The position numbers and the translations under genes were made by a program. From the IMG/VR virus record IMGVR_UViG_3300035208_001228: a DNA stretch of 33,198 nucleotides. The stretch is one strand, 5' to 3'. The notes below the pieces were generated by a model. It had not been told where the DNA came from and did not search any database. It saw only the letters and a program-made list of their open reading frames with translations. The stretch is from an uncultured virus (IMG/VR IMGVR_UViG_3300035208_001228) (lineage: Duplodnaviria; Heunggongvirae; Uroviricota; Caudoviricetes). Shown one piece after another: positions 11,000 to 33,198 of the stretch (the stretch's first letter is position 1; each line of letters starts with the position of its first letter).

Positions 11000-12307
11000 T
11001 CAACCGCGAGTGATGGTCGGTTCAGTCACGAGGCACTTGCCGCTCGTCGCAATGCTTGCGTTCTTGATGTCGAACGACTCTTTCTCGTACCGGTACTCCG
11101 GGAACAGATACGTTTCCTTCTCGGCTGTGCCGCACTCCGGTTCGTGGACAATCTTCACGTCGATGGCGTACATCGCACACGCGCTACCCGTGGAGACCCA
11201 CTCGGCAGCACCGCCCACTTGGTCCATCGCGTCAGTCGGCGTCACGCTCTCATCGGTCCCTGTGCGCACGTGCTCCCACGTGGCGTTAAGATCGAAGTCG
11301 AGCGGGATGTCCTTGCCCTGCCGGACAGTGTCGAGACGGTCTCGATCCAGGTCGTACTTTATCTCACGGCTCTTGGACCACTTGGCCTCACCGTCGCCGA
11401 GTTTCACTTCCAACTCCTGCGGCTGGAACGTGAGAACTGCGCCACTGGCGTACGTACCCGCGCCCAGTGCGGGCGAAAACACAATCTGCGTCGTCGGGCC
11501 TGTGCTTGCCGGCGTGCGTGCCGTCACCACATGGACTGTATCCGCGTCGGTCTCCCCGGCCACCGTGAAGCGCGCGCCAACTGGAACCAAGGCCGGGACC
11601 GCCGCATTCAGAACCACGGAGGCAACGTCCATCACGGTATCGGTCACAACTGGAACCGCGCCTGCACCGCCCAACACCGTTTCCGTGACTGTGACCGTCT
11701 TAGTCTCACCCGTCAGGTTGGCTCCGTCGCCAGTCAGATCGGCGATATGCGCGGCGGCCAACGCGCCAACGAACTCGACAACCCATGCCTGGGCCGGGCC
11801 GATGACGGACACATTGTCCTCGCCGATCGTGCTCAAGCCTTCCAACGCGGACTTCACCTGGGCGGCGGTCGCGTTGTGGGGAATGGCGCTGGTCTCCTGC
11901 CCGGAGTACGTCAAGGTGAACGTTCCAGCAGACACACCGGCGTCGAGCGTAACGCTCTGTTTCTCATTCGTCTTCTTGGCACAGGCACCGGCTCCCGCCA
12001 GCCCATCCAAAAAATATAACGTACACGTTTGTTGCTGACGCTATTGCGCCGGATAGGTCATTTCTGCCTATCTCTGCATGTCGCCATGCAGTCCAGACTA
12101 TATCTTCATCCCCATTCATTGAGGAGCATCGCGTGTAGTCGTTGAGGCTCCCTTTCGGTTGCCTGCTGATTGGCCGCACCACGCAGATTGTCACGTTTTC
12201 ACGTACTGGTGGATACTCGGTGTTTCCAGCATATAGCGATGTTGTTTCAAAACACGTTACCGTGTTAAGGAGACTGCTTGTTAATCTCGTAGTTGAATTC
12301 TGGCCAC
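11000..12307 (-). CDS. Major tail tube protein paralog 1, spliced: join(12284..12307, 11000..12025), 349 aa, with an inserted NEKQ/NEVQ-type domain
   Basis: GGAGG-N8-GTG at 12307 gives MARIQLRD then TAA. Removing 12026-12283 gives MARIQLRDCTLYFLDG, matching the paralog N-terminus MGQRIRLRDCVLTISS. Confidence 0.85.
12026..12283 (-). ncRNA. Group I self-splicing intron, 258 nt, no internal ORF
   Basis: Exon ends in U and intron ends in G. P1 GAGAU/GUCUC with U-G at the splice site; P2 AACACG-GUAA-CGUGUU; P3 CAUCGC/GCGAUG; P AUGCUGGAAA; Q AAUCAGCAGG; R UCAACGACUACA; S AAGAUAUAGUCU; P9 UGCAUG-GCGA-CAUGCA. Confidence 0.93.
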
Positions 12308-12365: not shown

Positions 12366-13101
12366 TTACTGGCCACTTACTGGCCACTTACCGGCTCTAT
12401 TCCACTTTTGGAACTGCGATCTTAATGTGCTGTAATTCACTCCCAGACCCCTAGCCGCGTCCTTCAAGCATCCGTACTCCACACCATTCACCTGAACCCC
12501 CTCTTTGCACGCACACTCCTCGCGCCACGGTGTGAATCGCGCATCCTCGCGCGGGTCTCAAGCGTGGGCTGATGTCCCCGGCGGGATAACCCAAGTTGGC
12601 GACCACGTTCTGTATAGTCACACGGGGCGTACGTCTTTGTCCCGTTATGAATTACACGCCGAACCGTTGCATAACACACTCCAAGAGACTGCATTGCCTC
12701 CTTCATCGAAACGTACTGGACACCATTGAACTCGCGTAACTGAAAACGCCGGTGTGGCTGTGCCATGTTGGCGCGTGACTTAGACGCGAGTTTCTTCCGT
12801 ACTTCGTCCGAGGGGTGAAACTGGCCCTCCCCACCGCCCGTAAGGTTGTAGCCGGCCCGTCCTTGTGTCTGTAATTCCGCAATCTTTACTCGTTCGAGGC
12901 CCAGCATCTCGCTGTCCGTACCACTCGCCATGACCTCAAATGTAAAGTTCTCGACTCCGTGTTTCTTGACGGCCCGCCACACCAATACGGAGCCTCTACC
13001 CCTGCAATGTTCCGCCCACCGGCTATCCGGGCGCGCCGTCACGCCGTCCCGCCGACGTACATCTTTCCATTGATCTGATTTGTGATGCAGTACAATACCA
13101 T
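12366..13101 (-). pseudogene. Free-standing GIY-YIG homing endonuclease with NUMOD-type DNA-binding repeats, frameshifted
   Basis: MVLYCITNQINGKMYVG (13101) continues in another frame as TARPDSRWAEH...KKHGVENFTFEV...GYNLTGGGEG after an 8-bp duplication. A second shift at a G5 run (~12497-12501) leads into VQVNGVEYGCLKDAARGLGVNYSTL. An 11-bp x3 repeat lies at the 3' end. Confidence 0.85.
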
Positions 13102-13105
13102 TGTG

Positions 13106-13603
13106 CTATTCCTGCCACGACATCGTGTAGCTGGCTGAAATCTCTTGCTGGTCCAACTTGACTGCTGGATCAACCTGTCCGAAGTTCCGAATAGCGACCG
13201 GGCGCTTCGGACGTGTTTCCAAACATCCAAGTTGGATTGGTTCACTGTCACGTCCCGCTACGTAGTCGCCCGTCTCTGACCCGTAGTTGAACACAGGGAT
13301 GGGTTCCGACATCGTCTCCGCGAACCGACCCGCGTATGTGATACTTGCGTAGGCGTTCTGCTCGCACGCCGGGTGCGTCATCAAGAGAACGTTCACGGCA
13401 ACCAACGCGGTGTAGTACCCTTTGCTGGTCTCGGTAATGTACGGCCCAGTGATCCGTATCTCGACTCGCTGGGGGGCTGCTTCAAACTCCTTAGTCCGTT
13501 CTTGCACCAACTCAACGCGCGCCACCAACGACAAATCATCGGCGGTCTCGGTCAACGTCTTTCCGATCGACGCCATGATCCAACGCGGCATAGAAGCATT
13601 CAT
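13106..13603 (-). CDS. Tail terminator / tail completion protein (putative), 165 aa
   Basis: Size and position between head closure and tail tube genes; ATGA coupling. Confidence 0.55.
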   Translation of the reverse strand: MNASMPRWIMASIGKTLTETADDLSLVARVELVQERTKEFEAAPQRVEIRITGPYITETSKGYYTALVAVNVLLMTHPACEQNAYASITYAGRFAETMSEPIPVFNYGSETGDYVAGRDSEPIQLGCLETRPKRPVAIRNFGQVDPAVKLDQQEISASYTMSWQE

Positions 13604-17433: not shown

Positions 17434-19460
17434 TCAGACCGCGATCCATGCAAAATCACAGCCGGTCGAGGCGGTCGTCACATCAGTTGCAACTACCATC
17501 CCATCAGGATCACCTTTGCTCGTCTCCGTCACAATAACGGTCGCCGTGTTGCCCGGCGTTGTCTCAACGACACCGACAGTGAGCGTGTTGCCCGGCGTTG
17601 TCTCAACGACACCGACAGTGAGCGTGTTGCCCGGCGTTGTCTCAACGACACCGACAGTGAGCGTGTTGCCCGGCGTTGTCTCAACGACACCGACAGTGAG
17701 CGTGTTGCCCGGCGTTGTCTCAACGACACCGACAGTGAGCGCACTTCCTGTGCCCGTCTCGGTTACGCTGATAGTTGCAGGGTCGCCGACCAACAACGTG
17801 CCGTCCCCTGTCAATGTAGCCACCTCTTGGTGGCCCAGTGCCCCCGTAAATGTCACGATCCACCCCGACGGGTCTCCGGCGGTGACTTCAATATCACCGT
17901 GTCCGACGTTACTCAAACCCTCCAAGGCGTCCTGCACATCAACAGACGCGGCGTCCCAGGCGATGTTTGCGGTCGTTTGGCCGTCGAACGTCAGCGTGAA
18001 CGTCCCGTTCGTAACGCCGTTCAATACGACTGTCTGAACCGCGTCTGCACCTGCTTCGCCGGTGATGGCATCGACATCCTGATTGGCGAGCAGCCCGCCG
18101 AACGCTACCGTGTGCGGGCCATCGCCGGTCACGGCTACGTCGCCTGGCTCGACACCGTCGATCGCTTCGAGCGCGGCCTGCACGGCAGCACTGTCGGCGT
18201 CGTACGCAATCGGTGCCGTAGTATGCCCGTCGAACGTCAGCGTGAAGGTGTCCCCTGCAATGCCGCCGCTCAGCGTGATGGTTTGGACTTCGTTCGTGCC
18301 GCCCACGCCGGTGATGGCATCGACATCCTGATTGGCGAGCAGCCCGCCGAACGCTACCGTGTGCGGGCCGTCGCCGGTCACGGCTACGTCGCCTGGCTCG
18401 ACACCGTCGATCGCTTCGAGCGCGGCCTGCACGGCAGCACTGTCGGCGTCGTACGCAATCGGTGCCGTAGTATGCCCGTCGAACGTCAGCGTGAAGGTGT
18501 CCCCTGCAATGCCGCCGCTCAGCGTGATGGTTTGGACTTCGTTNNNNNNNNNNCGAGCGCGGCCTGCACGGCAGCACTGTCGGCGTCGTACGCAATCGGT
18601 GCCGTAGTATGCCCGTCGAACGTCAGCGTGAAGGTGTCCCCTGCAATGCCGCCGCTCAGCGTGATGGTTTGGACTTCGTTGGATACACAGACACCGCTAA
18701 TCGCATCTGCGTCTGTGCCCGCCAAAGCATTGATGAACTCGACGGTATAGCCAGTGCTTGTGGCCAGCACAATGACATTTTCACCAAGTTCAGCTTCCAA
18801 TACCGCTTGGACCTCAGCGGCCGTGGCACCATACGCCACCGGCTCAAGTTCGATGGCGCCGTAGGACAGGGTCAGCGTGTCATCGACAGCCCCGCCGGTG
18901 ATGACGATAGTTTGCAATTCATTGATGCACACGCCAATAAGCAGCGGTACGTCCGTTTTGGCTAGGTCATTAACAAACGTAACGGTGTACGGTCCACCCG
19001 CATTCCCCGCGACAGCGACGTTGCCGCTGCCAACCGTAACGAGACCACACAGTGCGGCTTCTACCGTTCCGGCTGCGGCGTTATACGCAAGTGTCGAAGT
19101 CGTAGCACCCTTGAACGTCAACGTGAACTTGCCACTGGAATTGAGCCCAGTCACAGTGACCAACTGGCTAGAATTGCCTATCGGCACAGCGGCAATGAAG
19201 ACAGTGTGTGGGTCGTCCACTTCAAGTTTGAAATACTCGTCGGCTGGCAACGGGAATCCGGTCGTGCTTGACACGTTTGCGTGCCCAACATACAAGACGC
19301 CCGTGTTATTTTTGTTGGCGTAAAGCGTGACGCCTTTGAACACCTTGGCTGGCGCGTAACCTTCAGCGACAATCGGCTTGGCCACGATGTCAACGTGATC
19401 CTGGCCTGTGTAAAACGTGGGCACAGCAGTCTGGAAGCAATCCATCGAAGCGACCCTCAT
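17434..19460 (-). CDS. Repeat-rich virion structural/decoration protein with tandem NEVQ-type ~83-aa domains; spans an assembly gap
   Basis: ORFs 18519..19460 and 17434..18432 read as one gene broken by 10 Ns at 18544-18553. Repeated NE(V/L)QTI...FTLTF-G-TT--IAYDA-AA-VQAALE units. Confidence 0.75.
17545..17739. repeat. Perfect 39-bp tandem repeat x5 (LTVGVVETTPGNT)
   Basis: CGTGTTGCCCGGCGTTGTCTCAACGACACCGACAGTGAG repeated five times without spacers. Confidence 0.97.
18057..18680. repeat. Near-identical 249-bp tandem repeat, at least 2.5 copies, collapsed at the N gap
   Basis: Units start at 18057 and 18306; a partial unit follows the Ns. Confidence 0.95.
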
Positions 19461-21232
19461 TCAAATGTGTTTGCACCTGCGCCACGCTGTTGCGACACGG
19501 TGGAATTGTTCAGAGCGGTGTCGGTAGCACCCATTTTCTCAAGGCTGCCTGCCGTTGGCTCAATGGATAAGTCGCCTGCGCCACGCGCTCCTGCGTCCTT
19601 TTGAGCCGCGATGATTCGCGCGGCGCGTAATGCGTGAGCCTCACGCGCCTTTACGTACTCTTCCTTGTTGAACCCGAGCGCGAGCGAGCCTGTCTCGTCG
19701 CCACACAGACCCTGTTCCATCGCCATTGCAATCGTCTCGGGATCGCTGGTGGTGTACGGGGCCGCGTCAATCTCTTTATTGATCTGTTCGATAACGCTGA
19801 CTGACACTTTTCCGCCTAGAAGTGCTTGCACCGTGCATTTGGCGATTTCACGTTTGGCTATCTGACTGGGAACCTTCGCCATGAGGCCGGTCAACTTCGT
19901 CGATTCGTCGATGCGGTCAGCATCCGTCTTGAGACTGTAGCGATCGGGATACTTGATGACAGGGACCAGACGCTTTGACGGTTCGCGCTCCTCATACGCC
20001 GCCCAGTATTCGGAGAGCAGTTTCTCAGCCCCTTCGAGCACGAGGCCGATGTAGGACAAGCCGTTTTCCAGGCCCTGGTTGTCATACGACTTGGACTCGG
20101 CCGATTGACGCGCGCCCAGTGACGCGACAGCGAGGTTGATGAGAGTCCGTATGTCGTCCTTCAGACTGTCCTGCAACGTCTTCGACGCGATCAAAGGCTC
20201 CGATGACGGGTTGATGAATCCAGGGCGATCGGTCTCTTTGGCGTACAGGATACCCGTCGTGTTGCCGATCCGCATCTCTTTCGCAGTCGCGCCTTGGCCA
20301 CCTTCGGTCGCGGTGCCCTCATGCCCGTCGGGCCCCCTGAGATGCGTCACACCTTCGCGTCCATCGGACTGCCGCGTGAAGATGGGAACATTGGACTTCC
20401 AAGCGTAGCTGACATCACTGCTGGCCAGATTCAACAATGCGATCTGGTGCGTGCATACGTCCTTCAGCAACCCGTCGCCAATGTCAAGTAACACAAACGG
20501 AATCCGCGAAAGTTCAAGTTCGATCGGCTTGTCGTTTGGATTTCCGTCGCGGTCGGTCTTCTCGCCCTTCTCACTGTAGAACTGCAAGGACACCTTGCCA
20601 CGCGCGTCGATCCACAGATAGCGAAATCGCAGCACAGTCGTGTCGGGCAACCCTGTGTCGGCATCGTACGTCATCACTGTGTCGCGGAGCAGCAACGTCT
20701 CAAACTGCGACTGGCCCTCGGAGCGCGATAGTGTAAAGTTACGGATGTCTTCTAGGCGGTATGGATACAGGTACGGCGTAGCACCGACAGTGTCGCTTTG
20801 CCGCGCGCCGGCAGGCACTTCAGGAAAATCGACATACACCCCAACCTTTCCCATCAGCAGCAACTCGGTCAGAACACTCCTGCCACCGATGAATGCGTTC
20901 ATCGACGACCCACGACGATCGACGCCACCATTCAAACCTTCGACGGCCCGCCCGTATGCCGCACTACCACCGGTTCGCCGGACATCACGAAGTCGCTGGA
21001 AAATAGCGTTTCGGATTTCCAGCAACGCGGCCTTCGCGTGCGTCTGAATCGGCGTCATCGACAGCCGCTGCGCGTAGTCCTCCGTAGACTCACGGTTACT
21101 GTACCGTTGAAGATATGTCGTGCGGTAATACGTTCCGCCGTTGAAAGTGTCGCGCCAACAAGTCCAGTCTTGCGACAGCGACTCCCAGAGTGGGAACTGC
21201 GAATTGACGATGTTTTGCTTGACGGGGTCCAT
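19457..21232 (-). CDS. Portal protein, 591 aa
   Basis: YLQRYSNRESTEDYAQRL, LLMGKVGVYVDFP, IPFVLL and QSAESKSYD motifs of SPP1/DUF4055-like portals; downstream of the terminase. Confidence 0.88.
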   Translation of the reverse strand: MDPVKQNIVNSQFPLWESLSQDWTCWRDTFNGGTYYRTTYLQRYSNRESTEDYAQRLSMTPIQTHAKAALLEIRNAIFQRLRDVRRTGGSAAYGRAVEGLNGGVDRRGSSMNAFIGGRSVLTELLLMGKVGVYVDFPEVPAGARQSDTVGATPYLYPYRLEDIRNFTLSRSEGQSQFETLLLRDTVMTYDADTGLPDTTVLRFRYLWIDARGKVSLQFYSEKGEKTDRDGNPNDKPIELELSRIPFVLLDIGDGLLKDVCTHQIALLNLASSDVSYAWKSNVPIFTRQSDGREGVTHLRGPDGHEGTATEGGQGATAKEMRIGNTTGILYAKETDRPGFINPSSEPLIASKTLQDSLKDDIRTLINLAVASLGARQSAESKSYDNQGLENGLSYIGLVLEGAEKLLSEYWAAYEEREPSKRLVPVIKYPDRYSLKTDADRIDESTKLTGLMAKVPSQIAKREIAKCTVQALLGGKVSVSVIEQINKEIDAAPYTTSDPETIAMAMEQGLCGDETGSLALGFNKEEYVKAREAHALRAARIIAAQKDAGARGAGDLSIEPTAGSLEKMGATDTALNNSTVSQQRGAGANTFE

Positions 21233-21789
21233 CAGATTCGCACCTCTGTACGTTCAACGTAGTCCGCCAATGCACGCATCCGATCGGCTGAATCCCTCAC
21301 AAACCCGAGGACACGATTACAGTTGTCGCAGAGAAAGCCCCTGAACGCGCCTGTCTCGTGGTCGTGGTCAAGACACAGACGCTGTGTGCATTCAACCTCG
21401 GGAACGCCACAGACGTGGCACTTGCCGGTGAACGCCGCTGTCACTTCTTCAACCGTTGCAGTGCAAGGTGAATAGCCTAGTTGCTTTGCCGCATGTTGTG
21501 CGCGATAGATTGCCATCTTGAACCGGTTCACTTCTGCGTACTGCTGTCGTTCCAACTTATACACGTCCCTATACACCCGGCACCGTTCACGTTGTTTCGC
21601 CAGGACGCCAGGGCGATTACGGTATGCACGCCGTTTCTTACGCGCCTCAGGTGTACTGTTACGTTCGCGCATCGCTATGCAAAAGCAGTCTTTGCATTCC
21701 GCTCTGCGGCCGTCCGTGACTCTTCGGTCTGTGTAGAACTCGTCCAGTTCCTTTTCAACGCCACACTTTCTACAGACCTTCGTGTTCAT
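21232..21789 (-). CDS. Endonuclease VII-type HNH homing endonuclease, 185 aa
   Basis: N-terminal CxxC...CxxC; C-terminal CHVCG...LCLDHDHETGAFRGFLCDNCNRVLG. Inserted between terL and portal. Confidence 0.9.
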   Translation of the reverse strand: MNTKVCRKCGVEKELDEFYTDRRVTDGRRAECKDCFCIAMRERNSTPEARKKRRAYRNRPGVLAKQRERCRVYRDVYKLERQQYAEVNRFKMAIYRAQHAAKQLGYSPCTATVEEVTAAFTGKCHVCGVPEVECTQRLCLDHDHETGAFRGFLCDNCNRVLGFVRDSADRMRALADYVERTEVRI

Positions 21790-23801
21790 ATTCCCTTGAT
21801 GCTTCGGGTGGTGTCAATCGGTGCGTACTTCAATCCGATGCCCGCATAATTCAATGCGTGTGCAAAGTGGTCCGGTCCAGTGTTGATATAGACGCCGATG
21901 ACTTCACCCATCGGGTTCTTCTCAACCGTCCTCGTCAGGTTCTTCACGTGCGTGCTGAACTCGTCAGGGATGTCGCCAGGCAACCAAATACGCGACGGAT
22001 TGACCTTGAACCGTCCGAGCGTCTTGCCGAGCCATGACGTGCGATCTACCTGCAACATCGGGGCTCCACTGTCTGTGTCCTTGACGGTGATTTCATTGCC
22101 TTCGTTTCCGCCGCGATACCGTGTCGTGGCGGCGAAACCGTCGAACCTGCGACAGAACCTTCGTGCCTCATTCACATTCGGGTCTGCGTCCACGACTGCG
22201 TATAGCACCTGCCACTCGGCCATCAACTGATCGAGTCGATCCCAATCCTCTCCAAAAAACTTACCAACCCAGAGCACCCTGCAAATCGCAGAGTCGCCAA
22301 GGTCCGGGCCGAGTTCGCGGTCGAATAGCCATTCACAAATGACGATGTAGGATTCGCGTTCGCCTTGGTCCACACCCATCGTGATGAGCCGGCCGCTCCG
22401 GGTAGGCCGCAAGCCGTCCATCGAATATGGGCTAGCTGCACAAGCGACTGCATTAGCGATCATCGCGTCAGTCACTTTTGCGCCGGGGCCGACGTAGGGC
22501 AAACCTAGTTTCGAGTTGTGAAACTCTTTCGCCGCGAACTCGTTATTGATTCCCTCGAAATGTGCGACTACCAACTCAGCCGGTGATACGGTGAAAGAGT
22601 ACAACTGGCTGATATGGAAACCGCGAAACTCTTTGTTCGCGTTAGGTGCGGTCGAGACCCATTCAGCGTCGGCCAGAAACTCGGGCTTAGCTTCCTGCGC
22701 CAACCTCGCACCACACTCTTTGCACTTCAGATAGGAGTCCTTGCAACGCGGGTCCGTCGCGTACTCTCCGCAAACCTGAATGCAACCCGGCCATACCAAC
22801 TCTGTCCGCCTGCCGCAATGCGGACACTTGAACATGAAATGTTCTTGCGTCGTGTCCTTGTACAGCTTGTGAATGCCGTGCTCCGGGACGGTTGGTGTCG
22901 AGATGCCCCAGACATGCTTATGCAATTGTCCTGAAAGCCGTTCCAATGCCTGCGCGACTTGCTGGCGGTCCATCCGATCGACCTCATCAAAGATAAGTTC
23001 CGACACAGGAATCGACAGCAGACTATCGCGTCCGCGCGTGCCGCGAATGTACATGCAGTTATTGCCGGCCCGCTTCAAGTTGACCGCGTTGGTGTCGGTG
23101 AACACTGAGTCGAGGTATGGGCTCAGACTTAACGCCGGTCCCAAACGTGACTTGCTGAAATCGCTTGCCGCGCCTTGCGTCGGCATCAAGTACAGCACGT
23201 CCCTCTTCATTCTGTCGATGGTGTACAGTGCGCGATTGATAGCGACCTCAGTGACCCCGAGTTGTGCGCCCTTTAAGACCCAGGTATAAGGCGTCCAACT
23301 GTCGTGCATTTCCCGACACCACGGATGATAGCGCCAAGAGTAATTACCGGCGAAGTCGCCGCCCATGATCCTCCGATGCTGTGCCCACCGCGAACAGGTC
23401 GTCAACGACGTGGCCGTCATATTCTCGGCCAGCGCCGCGTCGAAATCAGCCATCGTGATAGGCATACGTGCTACGATCTCTTGAATGCTGTGCGTGCGGA
23501 GTTCGTCTTTTCCGTTACGCAGAAGGATGAACGTCGGGACGGCTGTGACGCCGTACCGTCTCGCAATGACTGGGTGTTCGTCAATGTCATACCGAGTGAC
23601 CTTCAGACCGGCCTTCTCCAGCCGATCCACAATCGGGGCTGCCGCACGACACGGCAGGCACCACGAGGCGTGGAAGACAAGCAGACTGATCCTGTGTGGG
23701 ACTGGCACATGGATCGGAATCGGGCGCGGTGCGATCACCGACTGCTGACAGCCGGATAAAGCCAGAAGGAGCAACGCGGCTGAGATCAATCTTTGAAGCA
23801 T
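21786..23801 (-). CDS. terL: Terminase large subunit (lambda GpA-type), in frame with an N-terminal lipoprotein signal and thioredoxin domain
   Basis: KGAQLGVTE, YLMPT, LIFDEVDRM, ISTPT, CPHC...CKEC and MGVDQG...DHFAHA motifs. Residues 1-~112 are an LLLLALSGC lipobox plus a WCLPC thioredoxin. Terminase proper may start at 23465 or 23453. Confidence 0.9.
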   Translation of the reverse strand: MLQRLISAALLLLALSGCQQSVIAPRPIPIHVPVPHRISLLVFHASWCLPCRAAAPIVDRLEKAGLKVTRYDIDEHPVIARRYGVTAVPTFILLRNGKDELRTHSIQEIVARMPITMADFDAALAENMTATSLTTCSRWAQHRRIMGGDFAGNYSWRYHPWCREMHDSWTPYTWVLKGAQLGVTEVAINRALYTIDRMKRDVLYLMPTQGAASDFSKSRLGPALSLSPYLDSVFTDTNAVNLKRAGNNCMYIRGTRGRDSLLSIPVSELIFDEVDRMDRQQVAQALERLSGQLHKHVWGISTPTVPEHGIHKLYKDTTQEHFMFKCPHCGRRTELVWPGCIQVCGEYATDPRCKDSYLKCKECGARLAQEAKPEFLADAEWVSTAPNANKEFRGFHISQLYSFTVSPAELVVAHFEGINNEFAAKEFHNSKLGLPYVGPGAKVTDAMIANAVACAASPYSMDGLRPTRSGRLITMGVDQGERESYIVICEWLFDRELGPDLGDSAICRVLWVGKFFGEDWDRLDQLMAEWQVLYAVVDADPNVNEARRFCRRFDGFAATTRYRGGNEGNEITVKDTDSGAPMLQVDRTSWLGKTLGRFKVNPSRIWLPGDIPDEFSTHVKNLTRTVEKNPMGEVIGVYINTGPDHFAHALNYAGIGLKYAPIDTTRSIKGI

Positions 23802-23851
23802 TCATTTTTCTCATTTCGTGCTACGTACTCGGCCAAAGCCAAGATTCGATC

Positions 23852-24141
23852 CGACGACCCACGACGATCGACGCCGCCATTCAAACCTTCGACCGCGCGC
23901 CCGTAGGCGGGGCTACCGCCGGTTCGCAGAACGTCACGAAGTCGCTGGAAATCTGAATCGACGGCATCGACAGCCGCTGACTGTAGTCCTCCGCCGATTC
24001 GCGGTTGCTGTATCGCTGAAGATACGTCGTTCTATAGCACGCGCCGCCATTGAACGTGTCACGCCAACAAGTCCAGTCTTGCGACAGCGACTCCCAGAGC
24101 GGGAAACACGAATTGACGATGCTTTTCTTGACCGGGTCCAT
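23852..24141 (-). pseudogene. 5' fragment of a second portal gene (40-bp deletion, truncated)
   Basis: MDPVKKSIVNSCFPLWESLSQDWTCWRDTFNGG matches the portal N-terminus. Lacks the equivalent of 21003-21042. Homology ends at GVDRRGSS. Confidence 0.9.
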
Positions 24142-24593
24142 CAGATTCGCGCCTCCGCGTGTGCCACATAATCCGCCAATGCGCGCATCCGATCGGCTGA
24201 ATCCGTTGCCAGCCCTAAGATATGGTTACAGTTGGCACAAAGCCAGCCGCGAAACTCGCCAGACGAATGATCGTGAGCCATACACAGGCGCGATGCACAC
24301 TCAATCTCGGGCACGCCACAAGCGTGGCAGCGTCCAGCGTACGCTGACTTTATCTCCTCGACAGTGTAGCCACGTCGCCGAGCATGGGTACGCGCGTTGC
24401 GTATCGCCGTCTTGTATCGCACGGCCACCCTATATTGGCAGCACCGCTCAGGATATTGCCGCTGGTACGTCGCGCCGCATTTCTTTTTACAGACTTTGCA
24501 CTGTGTGGTGCGCCCATCTCTGTGGGTGCAGCTACCGTAGAACTCAGCACGCGGCTTCGTATCACTGCACGTTTTGCAAGTCTTCGTTTCCAA
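24141..24593 (-). CDS. Second endonuclease VII-type HNH (150 aa), probably inactive
   Basis: Paralog of 21232..21789 with TTG start; active-site LDHDH is changed to MAHDH. Confidence 0.75.
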   Translation of the reverse strand: METKTCKTCSDTKPRAEFYGSCTHRDGRTTQCKVCKKKCGATYQRQYPERCCQYRVAVRYKTAIRNARTHARRRGYTVEEIKSAYAGRCHACGVPEIECASRLCMAHDHSSGEFRGWLCANCNHILGLATDSADRMRALADYVAHAEARI

Positions 24594-25322
24594 CTCAGAT
24601 GCCCCTGATGCTTCGGGTAGTGTCGATGGGCGCAAACTTCAACCCCAACGCCGCATAGACCAGACTGTGGGCAAAGTGGTCGGCTCCGTTCCCTGTTGTG
24701 ACATAGACGCCTGCCACATCCCCCAGCGGCCCCTTCTCGACAGTCCGCGTGAGGTTCATAATGTGCGTCTTGAACTCTTCAGGTATATCCTTTGGCAGCC
24801 AGATGCGTGTCGGGTTGACTTTGAATCGCCCGAGCGCCGCGCCGATCCAACTCGTACGATCCACTTGGACCATCGGTGCGCCGCTGTCCGCGTCCTTCAC
24901 GGTGACTTCGTTGCCCGCACTGCCACCGTGATACCGTGTGCGTGCGGCGTAGCCCTCGAACCGACGACAGAACCGGCGGGATTCGCTAGGATCGGGATCA
25001 GCATCGACGACGGCATAGAGAACTTGGAACTCAGCCATCAATTGGTCCAACTGTGACCAGTCACTACTGGGAAACCGCCCAACCCAGAGCACCTTGCAAA
25101 TGGCTGACTCTCCTAGATCGGCACTGAGCGGACGATCAAACAGCCACTCGCAGACTACAACGTGCGAGATTACCTCGCCCTGATCTACGCCCATCGTGAT
25201 GAGCCGGCCGCTTCGTGTCGGGCGCAAGTCGTCCATCGAATGGTCACGAAGCGCGTTATTAAACATGTCGGCCGTGACACGCGGCTTCGTATCACTGCAC
25301 GTTTTGCAAGTCTTCGTTTCCA
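24548..25322. repeat. Identical 45-bp direct repeat at 24548-24592 and 25278-25322
   Basis: CACGCGGCTTCGTATCACTGCACGTTTTGCAAGTCTTCGTTTCCA occurs twice. Confidence 0.97.
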
Positions 25323-25323
25323 T
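24595..25323 (-). CDS. Stand-alone diverged copy of the terminase C-terminal nuclease domain, fused to the first 15 aa of an endoVII
   Basis: METKTCKTCSDTKPR followed by VT..M..SMDDLRPTRSGRLITMGVDQG...APIDTTRSIRGI, colinear with the last ~230 aa of terL. ATG overlaps the upstream TAA. Confidence 0.85.
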   Translation of the reverse strand: METKTCKTCSDTKPRVTADMFNNALRDHSMDDLRPTRSGRLITMGVDQGEVISHVVVCEWLFDRPLSADLGESAICKVLWVGRFPSSDWSQLDQLMAEFQVLYAVVDADPDPSESRRFCRRFEGYAARTRYHGGSAGNEVTVKDADSGAPMVQVDRTSWIGAALGRFKVNPTRIWLPKDIPEEFKTHIMNLTRTVEKGPLGDVAGVYVTTGNGADHFAHSLVYAALGLKFAPIDTTRSIRGI

Positions 25324-25745
25324 TAGATCACTGCGGCGATGACAACGGGACCGGCGACCTTGGCGACTTCGATCGCAATCTTCTCAGCCGCCTCGATTCG
25401 CGCCCTCATGGCAGCACGGCCTTCCGGCGTCTTGATCTTGGCGCCGAGCATTCGCTCGAAGGTGCCTTCCAACTCTTGGATGATCGCAGAATTGCCAGCC
25501 TTAACGATGACTGCGGCATTCTGGATAGCTGTGAGAAGGTCATCAACCTCCCCGACCGTCACTGCCTCCAACGCTTCGGGCAACTTGACCAGGCCGAGTT
25601 TGCGCAACTCGATGGACAAGGCTTGTGTGGCCTTGCGAATGCTGGTCACACTCTTCTTGCCCTTGAAAATCAACTTGCCGATTTCGCGCCCGGCGACAAG
25701 ACACCCGGCCGCCGCCAACACCCATATCAGAATCTGTAGAAACAT
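25323..25745 (-). CDS. N-terminally membrane-anchored helical protein, 140 aa
   Basis: MFLQILIWVLAAAGCLVAG hydrophobic start, helical body and hydrophobic C-terminus. Confidence 0.7.
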   Translation of the reverse strand: MFLQILIWVLAAAGCLVAGREIGKLIFKGKKSVTSIRKATQALSIELRKLGLVKLPEALEAVTVGEVDDLLTAIQNAAVIVKAGNSAIIQELEGTFERMLGAKIKTPEGRAAMRARIEAAEKIAIEVAKVAGPVVIAAVI

Positions 25746-28164: not shown

Positions 28165-28181
28165 ATTCGCCGTTTGGCGAA
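28165..28181 (-). terminator. Short hairpin after the recombinase-like gene; a TATAGT -10-like hexamer follows toward the late operon
   Basis: TTCGCC-AAAC-GGCGAA-TTT on the minus strand; TATAGT at 28132-28137 (minus). Confidence 0.35.
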
Positions 28182-28184
28182 GAT

Positions 28185-29090
28185 TTACGCCTTCGGCTTG
28201 GCCCCGGCCTTGGCCCCGGCCTTGGCCCCGGCCTTGGCCCCGGCCTTGGCCCCGGCCTTGGCCCCGGCCTTGGCCCCGGCCTTGGGCTTGGGCTGCTGCT
28301 TCAGTTCGCGTTGGATTTCGATCGCGGCGTCCATCAGAGTCCGCGCTCGCGCGATAAGCAGAGCGGTTTCAACAACGTTTCCTGTTTGTTCGGCAACCCA
28401 TACCTTAACGGCGAGTCGAGTAATATCCGCTGAAAGATCACCGTCGTCGAGCCGCACTCCCCACCCATGTTCCGTGCGCTTCCATTGGTACGGATGCTGC
28501 CGTCGCCGGTGCATGATGCGATAGACAGTCGGCCCGTTGAACAGCGTCCCAATAGCCGTCCTGTGCCCGGCTGCATTCAGATACTCCGCGATCTGACTGT
28601 AGGTCATACCTTCCTTGCGAAGCCGATCGAAGGGCAGTAAACTGTACAGCTTTTGCGCCTTGATCTGCCGCACCTTCGCCGCTTCTCGGATGGCCTTCTT
28701 TTGGGCACTGGGACGTGTCTTCTTAACCGCCGGGTTTGCGAACCCCATGACCTTCCCCACAAGTTTTTCTTTCGTCTCTTTGCTCACTACCCGCGCGAAG
28801 AATCTGGCCTTTTCCAACGCGACGTGGCGTGTCTTATTGTTGAGATACGGCTTGTCACAGCAAATGAACTCAATCCCGTCAAGCATGGATAAGACGACGT
28901 GGCTACGTACGAGACTTCCGATCCTACCGATTATGAGGCGCGACCCTGTCTCACGAGCGTGCGAAATTGCCTCCTCTAGCCCGGAAAGCGACTTTCCTGT
29001 GCTAGTATACTCTGCCCCAATCGTCCCGTACTCCTCGGCCAAGTACCGCTGGTCGTGGACGGGAAGTCTGATCCACAGTGTATTGTCCAT
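28185..29090 (-). CDS. Serine recombinase (resolvase plus recombinase DNA-binding domain) homolog, catalytic motifs degenerate, with (AKAG)n tail
   Basis: LEEAISHARETGSRLIIGRIGSLVR, IEFICCDKP and GMTYSQIAEYLNAAGHRT align by eye to the resolvase family. YxRVS reads WIRLP here. Confidence 0.75.
   Translation of the reverse strand: MDNTLWIRLPVHDQRYLAEEYGTIGAEYTSTGKSLSGLEEAISHARETGSRLIIGRIGSLVRSHVVLSMLDGIEFICCDKPYLNNKTRHVALEKARFFARVVSKETKEKLVGKVMGFANPAVKKTRPSAQKKAIREAAKVRQIKAQKLYSLLPFDRLRKEGMTYSQIAEYLNAAGHRTAIGTLFNGPTVYRIMHRRRQHPYQWKRTEHGWGVRLDDGDLSADITRLAVKVWVAEQTGNVVETALLIARARTLMDAAIEIQRELKQQPKPKAGAKAGAKAGAKAGAKAGAKAGAKAGAKPKA
28198..28284. repeat. 12-bp tandem repeat x7 encoding AKAG
   Basis: TTGGCCCCGGCC repeated. 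Confidence 0.95.
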
Positions 29091-29109: not shown

Positions 29110-29490
29110 ATGAAGGCTTTGTCAATCGAGAACAGCATGGTCCAAGCATTCCGGGAGCAGGTCCGCGAGTACCAACCCACTGCTGAAGGGATAGGACTGC
29201 TACCCGAGCCAGGCGGTAGCATCGAGAACCTTCGACGACTGGGGCGTGACATCCTCGCCGTTCTGAACGGTACACACGTGCTGGTGGTTTTCAAGACGGG
29301 CGAGACCTACCTGACCAGCCTGCCGCCCGGTCCCGAGTTGGCCGATCTCCTGACCGAGTTGAACCAGGGCGACTTTGTGGACCGCGACGAGCTACTCCGC
29401 ACATTTGCGACGTGGCCGACCGACCTTGAGGGACCACTACCTATAACGGGTGGCATAGGAAAAGCGCCGTTTGGCCAGTCGTTACCTTAG
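29110..29490 (+). CDS. Hypothetical protein, 126 aa, divergent from the recombinase homolog
   Basis: 3' part of ORF 28615..29490 starting at ATG 29110 (MKALSIENS...); globular-looking composition. Confidence 0.55.
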   Translation: MKALSIENSMVQAFREQVREYQPTAEGIGLLPEPGGSIENLRRLGRDILAVLNGTHVLVVFKTGETYLTSLPPGPELADLLTELNQGDFVDRDELLRTFATWPTDLEGPLPITGGIGKAPFGQSLP

Positions 29491-29780
29491 TTTGGCCAGT
29501 CGTTACCTTCCGTTTTGCGCTCAACAACTCGATTGGCCCTTACGTATTCAACGACTTACGTCTCAGCAGGCCAATCGAGTTTCTTGGCTGCTACATTACA
29601 CGCTATACTATTCTTGTTTTGACTACGGTCCCAAACACGTTTGTATATGGCTAAATGTAGCAAACAAGGAACTCGATTGGCCTGCTGAGACGTAAGTCGT
29701 TGAATACGTAAGGGCCAATCGAGTTGTTGAGCGCAAAACGGAAGGTAACGACTGGCCAAACTAAGGCAACGACTGGCCAA
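29471..29780. repeat. Long inverted repeat: 127-bp arms (29471-29597 / 29654-29780, 4 mismatches), 56-bp spacer, nested sub-repeats
   Basis: Direct reverse-complement comparison. Confidence 0.95.
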
Positions 29781-32719: not shown

Positions 32720-32777
32720 AAGCTGAGCGCGGCATTCCGTTTCTAACGGTTCTAGTTGCCGCGCGTCGAATATAGCG

Positions 32778-33198
32778 CCGGCGGGCTCTGCGCTTGGCCG
32801 GCGGGCTCTGCGCTTTGCCGATCATCCGGCGGGCTCTGCCGATGGTCGGCGGGCTCTGCCGATGGTCGGCGGGCTCTGCGCCTTGACCGATGGTCGGCGG
32901 GCTCTGCCGATGGTCGGCGGGCTCTGCCGATGGTCGGCGGGCTCTGCCGATGGTCGGCGGGCTCTGCGCCTTGACCGATGGTCGGCGGGCTCTGCCGATG
33001 GTCGGCGGGCTCTGTGCCTTGACCGATGGCGGGCGGGCTCTGGCCGGCGGGCTCTGCGCTTGACCGGATGGCCGGCGGGCTCTGCGCCTTGACCGGATGG
33101 CCGGCGGGCTCTGCGCTTGACCGGATGGCCGGCGGGCTCTGCGCCTTGACCGATGGTCGGCGGGCTCTGGCCGGCGGGCCCTGCGCCTTGACCGGTGG
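32778..33198. repeat. Array of about 18 GGCGGGCTCTG-core repeats, mostly 20- and 28-bp periods, running off the window end
   Basis: Units such as CCGATGGTCGGCGGGCTCTG counted by eye. Confidence 0.95.

Follow-up and report, generated by a model that had tools for sequence, protein, structure and literature searches.

A predicted lipoprotein thioredoxin in frame with the large terminase of an uncultured phage: probably nested genes after loss of a stop codon

Packaging by a phage terminase needs ATP and cytoplasmic DNA, and a terminase joined to an export signal raises the question of where such a protein could work. The window, that is, the whole stretch of 33,198 nucleotides analysed here (IMG/VR record IMGVR_UViG_3300035208_001228, from an uncultured virus of the Caudoviricetes), contains such a frame. 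On its minus strand, positions 21786..23801 form one open reading frame (ORF) of 671 codons that, by sequence and Pfam, encodes a signal peptide, a linker, a thioredoxin and the large terminase (TerL). A preliminary description of the locus had seen in this uninterrupted frame a lipobox, a Pro-rich linker, a thioredoxin and a GpA-type ATPase and nuclease, all of which were found again, and had offered three readings: nested in-frame genes with an internal start, a recent stop loss, or a membrane-tethered or redox-controlled packaging motor. The evidence set out below points to in-frame nested genes that followed a stop loss.

The 671-codon fused ORF is real. Positions 21700-24091 are spanned in one piece by Logan contigs from four runs of three studies with no other letters and no gaps, and the contigs are identical across the junction (~23440-23480), where the preliminary description had advised a check; contigs rather than raw reads were compared, and the four runs, all flagged as possible sources of the window, are not fully independent. 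The same open frame occurs in six further distinct loci (L002, L003, L036, L110, L112 and L124), and two proteins (P0002 and P0003) also carry the thioredoxin-TerL fusion; identity of these other fused loci and proteins to the window ORF is 53-77%. An assembly or sequencing error that missed a stop or an indel might be suspected in a window of metagenomic origin checked by contigs, but it is very improbable given the identical contigs and the frame shared by the other loci and proteins. A TGA directly precedes the ATG at 23801, and the A-rich leader before this ATG is intact. Stop-codon recoding was considered and set aside as unnecessary, all ORFs of the window being intact under table 11.

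The first 18 residues (23748..23801) have the features of a lipoprotein signal peptide: the n-region MLQR, the hydrophobic core LISAALLLLA and the lipobox LSG-C, with Cys18 as the lipobox Cys. They fit the criterion used for bacterial lipoproteins (positive n-region, hydrophobic core and lipobox [LVI][ASTVI][GAS]C), and lipidation itself is a prediction; the AF2 model has a helix at residues 2-15. Residues 19-35 (23697..23747) form a Pro-rich linker, with a pLDDT below 50 for residues 17-34, and the thioredoxin-fold domain follows at residues 36-112 (23466..23696), as recognized by Pfam, PDB, AF2 and Foldseek comparisons. PF00085 matches residues 36-100 (2e-11; 44.3 bits against a cut-off of 23.5) and is covered only at profile positions 18-85 of 103; the CxxC active site WCLPC and the cis-Pro loop VPTF are both there. 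Thioredoxins of the PDB are matched by sequence, best by 1v98 (7.1e-13), most of those listed with 104-110 residues being aligned from chain residue 19-25 onward, and Foldseek superposes the domain on 1v98 with an rmsd of 2.0 over 80 columns. In the AF2 model, a four-stranded beta-alpha-beta-alpha-beta-beta-alpha core spans residues 38-112 (strands over residues 38-103) at a pLDDT of 90-97, and the N-terminal beta1/alpha1 is absent. The domain had been described as a complete thioredoxin; it falls short of the full five-stranded classical fold. TlpA, ResA and CcmG represent membrane-anchored periplasmic thioredoxin-like proteins. The window protein shares with these, and with classical PF00085 proteins, an N-terminal anchor or lipobox, the CxxC, the cis-Pro and the thioredoxin core, but it is shorter, has only the four-stranded core, and is phage-encoded, with a gene order that ties it to terL. 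Close relatives of the thioredoxin part that stand alone were sought by a method that depends on shared words, which gave one weak match among 18 candidates.

Residues 113-671 (21786..23465) constitute a GpA-type large terminase with ATPase, Cys4 zinc ribbon and nuclease, according to Pfam, phrog_675 (1.5e-85) and Foldseek. GpA_ATPase (PF05876) matches residues 151-381 (6.2e-30; 105.1 bits against a cut-off of 25.6) and GpA_nuclease (PF20454) residues 393-484 (2.1e-5; 24.3 bits against 22.5), the latter over profile positions 2-92 of 294 only; structurally, the part resembles the large terminases of HK97, D6E, T4 and Sf6, and the terminase nuclease domains 5m1f and 5tge were also matched. The Cys4 site of the preliminary description is borne out as two CxxC pairs (C329, C332, C360 and C363; 22713..22817): all four Cys are invariant in alignment A1, and in alignment A2 C360 and C363 are invariant and C329 nearly so. 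Thus far the protein is like lambda-type large terminases, with which it shares the ATPase, the zinc ribbon, the C-terminal nuclease and a gene position just upstream of the portal gene; it differs from them in the signal peptide and thioredoxin fold that stand before it in the same frame. Pfam and phrog searches recognized no small terminase beside terL.

How this arrangement came about can be read from the relatives. A thioredoxin gene lies upstream of terL in 106 of the 121 assessable loci of the TerL family, usually with one to four small genes in between; in 93 of the 121 it stands apart as a gene of its own, at a distance of 120-4000 nt. One clade has the two genes abutting. Six abutting loci, one of them outside this clade, have a stop codon or a short out-of-frame overlap at the boundary. 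In L160 a single in-frame TAG separates the genes and is followed after 9 nt by a GTG; in L135 the thioredoxin stop is overlapped by the ATG of TerL, which lies in a different frame, much the same is seen in L113 and L114, and in all of these and L178 the stop and the start overlap or lie at most about 40 nt apart. Since these relatives of the same clade keep abutting but separate genes, TerL works without a covalently attached thioredoxin. The open frame is found in seven loci, which fall into three positions on the TerL tree. When nine fused rows were held together against ten known unfused rows, in groups named after the TerL tree had been seen, the tree uniting the fused rows was rejected by the AU test (delta lnL 83.5; p-AU 0.00035). 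The boundary thus switches from one state to the other while the lineage goes on undisturbed; the fusion arose or reverted at least three times. With phage mosaicism, the junction could have a history other than that of the TerL tree.

The boundary is labile, and the fusion is old. The window and L002 have it in common, with 76% identity between the proteins and synonymous sites near saturation (pS 0.65-0.75), and the fusion of the L003 group is older still; of the recent stop loss that had been suggested, the loss is supported and its recency is not. A stop between the two genes, for which the preliminary description had advised looking in homologous loci, is present in most relatives and missing from the six other fused loci, so that most relatives, not all, encode two separate genes. 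No fused example occurs among the 20 loci from genomes (MAGs), the thioredoxin part is matched by none of the 150 best representatives taken at 50% identity, and TerL finds no match in G001, the nearest virus record. The closest TerL that is called unfused, P0005, begins at the residue homologous to Met113, and two proteins (P0006 and P0009) have a signal-peptide-like extension, lacking the thioredoxin, that is open in frame into TerL. In literature listings and abstracts, no description of a thioredoxin-terminase fusion or of this phage group was found.

Candidate start codons for TerL lie inside the fused frame. The TerL of unfused relatives starts 22-24 residues before a TCSRW motif, in many cases with a stop codon immediately ahead, and Met113 (ATG 23463..23465), the proposed TerL start, lies 22 residues before TCSRW and is homologous to these stand-alone starts; a second ATG (Met117, 23451..23453) is the alternative. 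At this start column the seven fused ORFs have ATG twice and TTG four times, and in L124 an ATG three codons later. L110 and L112 also have an ATG two codons downstream of the TTG. In L003, L036, L110 and L112 the column itself holds only TTG, which accounts for 15-23 of about 60 Leu codons there, and retention of such a common codon is weak evidence. In the AF2 model residue 112 closes the thioredoxin helix and residue 117 opens that of TerL, with a dip in pLDDT to 65-71 over residues 111-130. Alignment, domain boundary and a start kept in 7/7 ORFs make nested genes with a start at 23465 the best supported of the options in the preliminary description. That description had also noted a weak Shine-Dalgarno (SD) sequence, and only AAGAGA, 12-17 nt upstream of ATG 23465, was found; inspection of the window genes revealed no convincing ribosome-binding motif there, and many other window genes also have no SD. 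The hosts are Planctomycetota in 18 of the 20 genome loci, and the discussion of PMC5397173 counts this phylum with those in which SD-led genes make up a small fraction; because Planctomycetota use few SD sequences, the weak motif need not argue against the internal start. The mRNA around the internal start is only mildly less folded than the average of the ORF, 8-45% of the windows within each of seven ORFs being equally weak or weaker. A +1-frame TAG lies 8 nt before ATG 23465 in the window; termination of the thioredoxin by programmed frameshifting was considered and rejected, as inspection of the L002 codons by eye showed no stop close by in the two other frames.

Both parts of the frame are conserved. 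Between fused relatives, dN/dS of the thioredoxin part is 0.22 (window/L002), 0.17 (L036/L110) and 0.31 (window/L124), and 0.48 for L110/L112, a value that comes from very few changes. A lipobox, the CxxC and the cis-Pro are kept in 7/7 fused ORFs with DNA; a loose lipobox pattern, cruder than the criterion above, is met in 54 of 111 distinct thioredoxin N-termini adjoining terL. Purifying selection on the thioredoxin in fused pairs argues that the upstream start is used as well. The thioredoxin-less extensions of P0006 and P0009 look like remnants, and an insert of 1.45 kb disrupts the region upstream of the window thioredoxin, as might be expected if the upstream start had fallen silent after the stop loss and only TerL were expressed from behind a decaying leader; such decay is improbable, however, in view of the dN/dS values, the retained motifs and the intact A-rich leader with an ATG right after a stop.

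The reading we consider probable, on sequence and structural models, is that of nested genes. The window would be the structural module of a siphovirus-like Planctomycetota phage, and phages with this TerL family usually have, upstream of terL, a thioredoxin gene whose product is predicted to be exported, mostly as a lipoprotein. One clade would have lost the genes in between, leaving the thioredoxin gene to abut terL, and the stop between them would have been lost or regained several times and be absent in the lineage of the window. Initiation at ATG 23465 (Met113) would yield an ordinary cytoplasmic TerL of 559 aa as the working packaging enzyme. Initiation at ATG 23801 would yield the lipoprotein thioredoxin precursor, which, with no stop in its way, would read through TerL to 671 aa. 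We infer that the N-terminus of this product would enter the Sec/lipoprotein pathway and that its TerL tail would be a tolerated by-product, exported, degraded or clipped; with a positive n-region, a lipobox and no later membrane segment, the TerL of the long form would lie outside the cytoplasm. Besides the lack of a convincing ribosome-binding motif, the only mildly weak folding and the common TTG, other points stand against nested genes: fusion that has lasted long in two lineages could also mean selection, and a functional thioredoxin would require a long polypeptide with an exported tail of 559 aa, with which the cell would have to cope.

An unlikely alternative is that the 671-aa chain is itself the working terminase, tethered to the membrane by an N-terminus that stays uncleaved or is lipidated, or regulated by way of the thioredoxin and the Cys4 site. 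Three lineages, of which two are deeply diverged, have kept the frame open, both parts are conserved, the L003-type group has TTG and no ATG at the start column (an ATG follows two codons downstream in L110 and L112), and AF2 folds both parts confidently in one chain. Yet the positive n-region and lipobox would send the chain outward, there is no membrane segment between thioredoxin and TerL, TerL is a separate protein in sister loci, the thioredoxin is a separate gene, not abutting terL, in 93/121 loci, and its part goes unmatched among the 150 representatives; the motor proposed in the preliminary description is accordingly not supported. The pLDDT dip between the domains and the weak internal ribosome-binding site would also suit a polyprotein, translated only in its long form, from which a protease or signal-peptide-independent processing would free TerL near residue 112. 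This seems improbable, as the alignment of fused ORFs shows no protease motif or conserved cleavage sequence at the junction, a start codon is kept there, and targeting of the chain to export would come ahead of its cleavage. We give a similarly small chance to a long isoform kept on purpose, in which cytoplasmic TerL would coexist with a lipoprotein-anchored thioredoxin-TerL in the envelope and the fusion would recur by selection rather than tolerance; if so, the envelope form might be a periplasmic nuclease against superinfecting phage DNA, a translocon-jamming lysis timer or a membrane tether for packaging.

Nested genes would have precedents. Lambda C/Nu3, T7 gene 4A/4B and lambda S107/S105 are phage genes nested within one frame that give a longer and a shorter product. 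The window likewise has one frame with two start codons, the second of them predicted, and a short product that is the C-terminal part; unlike in these cases, its long form has a lipoprotein export signal, which would place the products in two compartments, and the arrangement joins two unrelated genes that lie apart in close relatives. The unfused sisters L135, L160, L113, L114 and L178 resemble translationally coupled gene pairs whose stop and start overlap, of the kind treated in PMC6728339; in the window, with no stop between the genes, termination-reinitiation as in such pairs cannot operate.

Several consequences follow for annotation and biology. Gene callers join into one two genes with products for different compartments, and in one source the fused P0001 and P0002 are named 'thiol-disulfide isomerase/thioredoxin', which hides the terminase. 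The exported, mostly lipoprotein thioredoxin upstream of terL is an undescribed conserved accessory gene of a large Planctomycetota phage/prophage family, and together with a DUF1360 CxxC membrane protein it hints at a phage-encoded envelope thiol-disulfide system. The loci offer a clear natural series of boundary states, with genes apart, genes that abut and overlap, genes divided by one in-frame stop, and the fused frame. They also allow internal initiation to be tested in a phylum where SD sequences are little used.

The surroundings of terL, all on the minus strand, are those of a packaging module. Downstream lies an Endonuclease VII-type HNH gene (21232..21789; PF02945, 7e-18; phrog_2633) whose ATG overlaps the terL stop, followed by the portal protein gene (19457..21232; phrog_145, 7.3e-34). 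Upstream, a gene for a membrane protein of 140 aa (25323..25745), which has no family match in Pfam or phrog, is kept directly before the thioredoxin gene in L002, L003, L110, L112, L124, L135 and L160. In the window a diverged partial copy (23852..25322) sits between this gene and the thioredoxin start and comprises the 3' end of terL, the Endonuclease VII gene and the 5' end of the portal gene. Its nucleotide identity to the resident copy is 71% and 75%, and its Endonuclease VII protein is 43% identical to the resident one. An exact repeat of 45 nt (24548-24592 and 25278-25322) bounds the copy; contig depth over the copy equals that of the resident part and is about double over the repeats. 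Among loci of the TerL family, a gene for a DUF1360 membrane protein with CxxC often stands beside the thioredoxin gene.

On the minus strand, positions 21786-23801 form a single open frame of 671 codons, with an ATG start directly 3' of a TGA. The product begins with a predicted signal peptide, in which MLQR precedes a hydrophobic core and the lipobox LSG/C ends at Cys18. Residues 19-35 form a Pro-rich linker; next comes a thioredoxin fold carrying the motifs WCLPC and VPTF (residues 36-100 in the match to PF00085, 2e-11), and the C-terminal part is a GpA-type large terminase, TerL (PF05876, 6.2e-30; PF20454, 2.1e-5; phrog_675, 1.5e-85). The architecture read in the preliminary description, an uninterrupted frame running from lipobox and linker through thioredoxin to GpA-type ATPase and nuclease, was borne out by the sequence and by Pfam. 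The AlphaFold2 model (65-row alignment, mean pLDDT 89.8) has a signal-peptide helix at residues 2-15, disorder at 17-34 and a beta-alpha-beta-alpha-beta-beta-alpha thioredoxin core at 38-112 (pLDDT 90-97); confidence drops after this core, and the first TerL helix begins at residue 117. Foldseek matched the model to the solved large terminases of HK97, D6E, T4 (gp17) and Sf6, and the thioredoxin to 1v98 (rmsd 2.0 over 80 columns). The thioredoxin had been called complete; its motifs and Pfam match stand, but the match covers only profile positions 18-85 of 103, and for most of the listed thioredoxins of 104-110 residues the PDB alignment begins at chain residue 19-25. The domain is a compact core, not a full classical thioredoxin. 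The TerL is an ordinary GpA-family protein and the thioredoxin a predicted short thioredoxin-fold lipoprotein.

That the open frame is an assembly or sequencing artefact is hardly credible. Logan contigs from four runs in three studies span 21700-24091 in one piece with no differences and no gaps, including ~23440-23480, where a check for a stop or indel had been advised; the comparison is at contig level, and each of the runs, which come from landfill and groundwater metagenomes, is marked as a possible source of the window. Independent support comes from the same open frame in other records: after duplicate removal, seven distinct fused loci were found as DNA (L001, the window type, also seen as L109; L002, L003, L036, L110, L112 and L124) and two more as database proteins (P0002, P0003), the relatives ranging from 77% down to 53% identity to the window. 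Lipobox, CxxC and cis-Pro are kept in all seven fused frames with DNA. The dN/dS of the thioredoxin is 0.22 (window/L002), 0.17 (L036/L110), 0.31 (window/L124) and 0.48 (L110/L112, with very few changes), synonymous sites being near saturation in the deeper fused pairs. Both halves of the fused frames are maintained.

In the TerL family, 159 distinct loci were retrieved, of which 121 were assessable upstream (in the other 38 the upstream part was too short or the 5' end of terL was missing). In 93 of the 121 a same-strand thioredoxin gene lies 120-4000 nt upstream; it abuts terL as a separate gene within 120 nt in six and is fused to it in seven; none was found within at least 1500 nt upstream in the remaining 15. 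Homologous loci had been proposed as a check for a stop between the two genes, and most do have a stop or separate genes, with an open frame in seven. Fusion is rare: none of the best 150 hits among 50%-identity representatives matched the query before residue 110, and 4 of 73 hits in a word-indexed search were fusions. A crude pattern finds a lipobox in 54 of the 111 distinct thioredoxin N-termini, and another 25 are hydrophobic; an exported thioredoxin is thus the ancestral terL neighbour, not a peculiarity of the window. In separated forms, one to four small genes intervene, one of them for a CPxC-containing DUF1360 membrane protein. This ~100-aa protein (CP[YW]C; PF07098, 2.5e-6) follows the thioredoxin at 4918-5220 in L013, with equivalents in L010 and L012, and a ~335-aa protein with a twin-arginine-like signal precedes the thioredoxin. 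Such a set may serve the phage as an envelope thiol-disulfide module or as a lysis module; the DUF1360 and ~335-aa genes are missing from the window.

All fused loci and four of the six abutting loci fall within a single TerL-tree clade (support 99); abutting L178 falls outside it, and L198, like L178 at the junction, is absent from these trees. On a 28-row IQ-TREE tree, fused rows occupy three places: the window, L002 and P0002, with P0005, called unfused, nested among them; L124, whose sister L030 has a stop directly upstream; and L003, L036, P0003, L110 and L112, adjoining abutting L113 and L114. Constraining the nine fused rows together against ten known unfused ones cost 83.5 log-likelihood units (p-AU 0.00035), for a group defined after the tree was seen, and through phage mosaicism the junction could have a history that the TerL tree does not share. 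Despite both caveats, the boundary has changed state at least three times. A point mutation or 1-2 nt indel would turn any abutting form into the fused state: in L135 the TerL ATG lies ~10 nt before the thioredoxin TGA in a different frame, and L113, L114 and L178 have overlaps, or gaps up to ~40 nt. In L160 (3983-3997) the two genes share a frame with a single TAG between and a GTG 9 nt downstream; this form is one mutation away from the fused state, and stop-codon readthrough there would yield the same fusion. P0006 and P0009 have a signal-peptide-like extension without thioredoxin, open into TerL, a sign that members of this clade tolerate an open frame upstream.

The conflict noted earlier between an exported lipoprotein and cytoplasmic packaging was upheld. 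With its positive n-region and lipobox, and with no membrane segment separating thioredoxin from TerL, the signal peptide would send all residues that follow it out of the cytoplasm; terminases are ATP-dependent and act on cytoplasmic DNA. In sister phages TerL is a protein of its own. The simplest reading, and a reasonably probable one, is of in-frame nested genes after stop loss: TerL would be made from Met113 (ATG 23465) or Met117 (ATG 23453), while the upstream start would give a thioredoxin precursor with a tolerated TerL tail (559 aa). An internal start at these ATGs was among the options in the preliminary description and is favoured here. The TerL frame of unfused relatives starts 22-24 codons ahead of the conserved TCSRW motif, often right after a stop; Met113 lies exactly 22 residues before that motif, directly after the last modelled thioredoxin helix, and P0005, the closest TerL called unfused (76% identity), starts at the homologous Met. 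The start column of the fused frames reads ATG twice and TTG four times, L124 having an ATG three codons later; TTG is weak evidence because it is a common Leu codon in these frames. No good SD precedes ATG 23465, which may carry little weight: many window genes lack one as well, and a published discussion (PMC5397173) counts Planctomycetota among the phyla in which few genes are SD-led. The mRNA folding around this ATG is only mildly weak.

Stop loss, also suggested earlier, belongs to the nested-gene reading; its supposed recency does not stand, as the fusion persists in deep lineages. That persistence leaves some room for selection in favour of the fusion, although a truly functional 671-aa product is unlikely. 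Cleavage of a polyprotein is less likely still, as is a silent, decaying thioredoxin leader, against which purifying selection on the thioredoxin argues. Phages have long/short gene pairs in one frame, as in lambda C/Nu3 and T7 4A/4B, and the window frame would be a similar nested arrangement; unlike them, its long form has a predicted export signal and joins two unrelated genes. The literature searched, at the level of titles and abstracts, described neither a thioredoxin-terminase fusion nor this phage group.

Between the thioredoxin start and a conserved 140-aa membrane-protein gene (25323-25745, minus strand), sequence comparison revealed a diverged 1.45-kb partial copy of the terL 3' end, EndoVII gene and portal 5' end (23852-25322, minus strand). 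It has 71% and 75% nucleotide identity to the resident copy, the endonuclease protein being only 43% identical, and an exact 45-nt repeat bounds it (24548-24592 and 25278-25322). The frame at 24595-25323 joins the first 15 codons of the copied EndoVII to copied TerL residues from ~442. In the Logan contigs of each of the four runs the insert is as deep as the resident region, with about double depth at the repeats, and L002 and L003 lack it. It resembles a trace of homing-endonuclease-associated recombination with another, related phage, and leaves the fused frame untouched.

The window carries a siphovirus-like structural module in the order TerL, endonuclease VII, portal, scaffold, major head protein, adaptor, tail proteins and tape measure. 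Of 20 genome loci of this TerL family, 18 are in MAGs labelled Planctomycetota (Pirellulales, Thermoguttaceae, Planctomycetaceae, Aureliella); L195 and L206, labelled uncultured archaeon (490-kb contig) and Patescibacteria bin, are probably mis-binned or mislabelled. Several genome loci lie within megabase contigs and are therefore prophages. A full-length group I intron match (12074-12293, minus strand; RF00028, 68.7 bits, E 1.3e-15) looks like an intron in the phage tail module; it sits just downstream of a GIY-YIG-type homing-endonuclease frame (12488-13257, minus strand; phrog_314, 9.9e-17) and is followed by a tail-protein-like frame (11000-12040, minus strand). The N-terminal endonuclease motif (13039-13257) is in a different frame from the remainder, and the gene may be frameshifted. 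Repeats of 39 and 249 nt lie within tail-protein-like frames (17483-17780 and 17927-18707), a 12-nt repeat within a 369-aa frame (28173-28304), a 138-nt inverted repeat, 93% complementary, at 29471-29780, and tandem 20/28-nt repeats at the window end (32759-33198).
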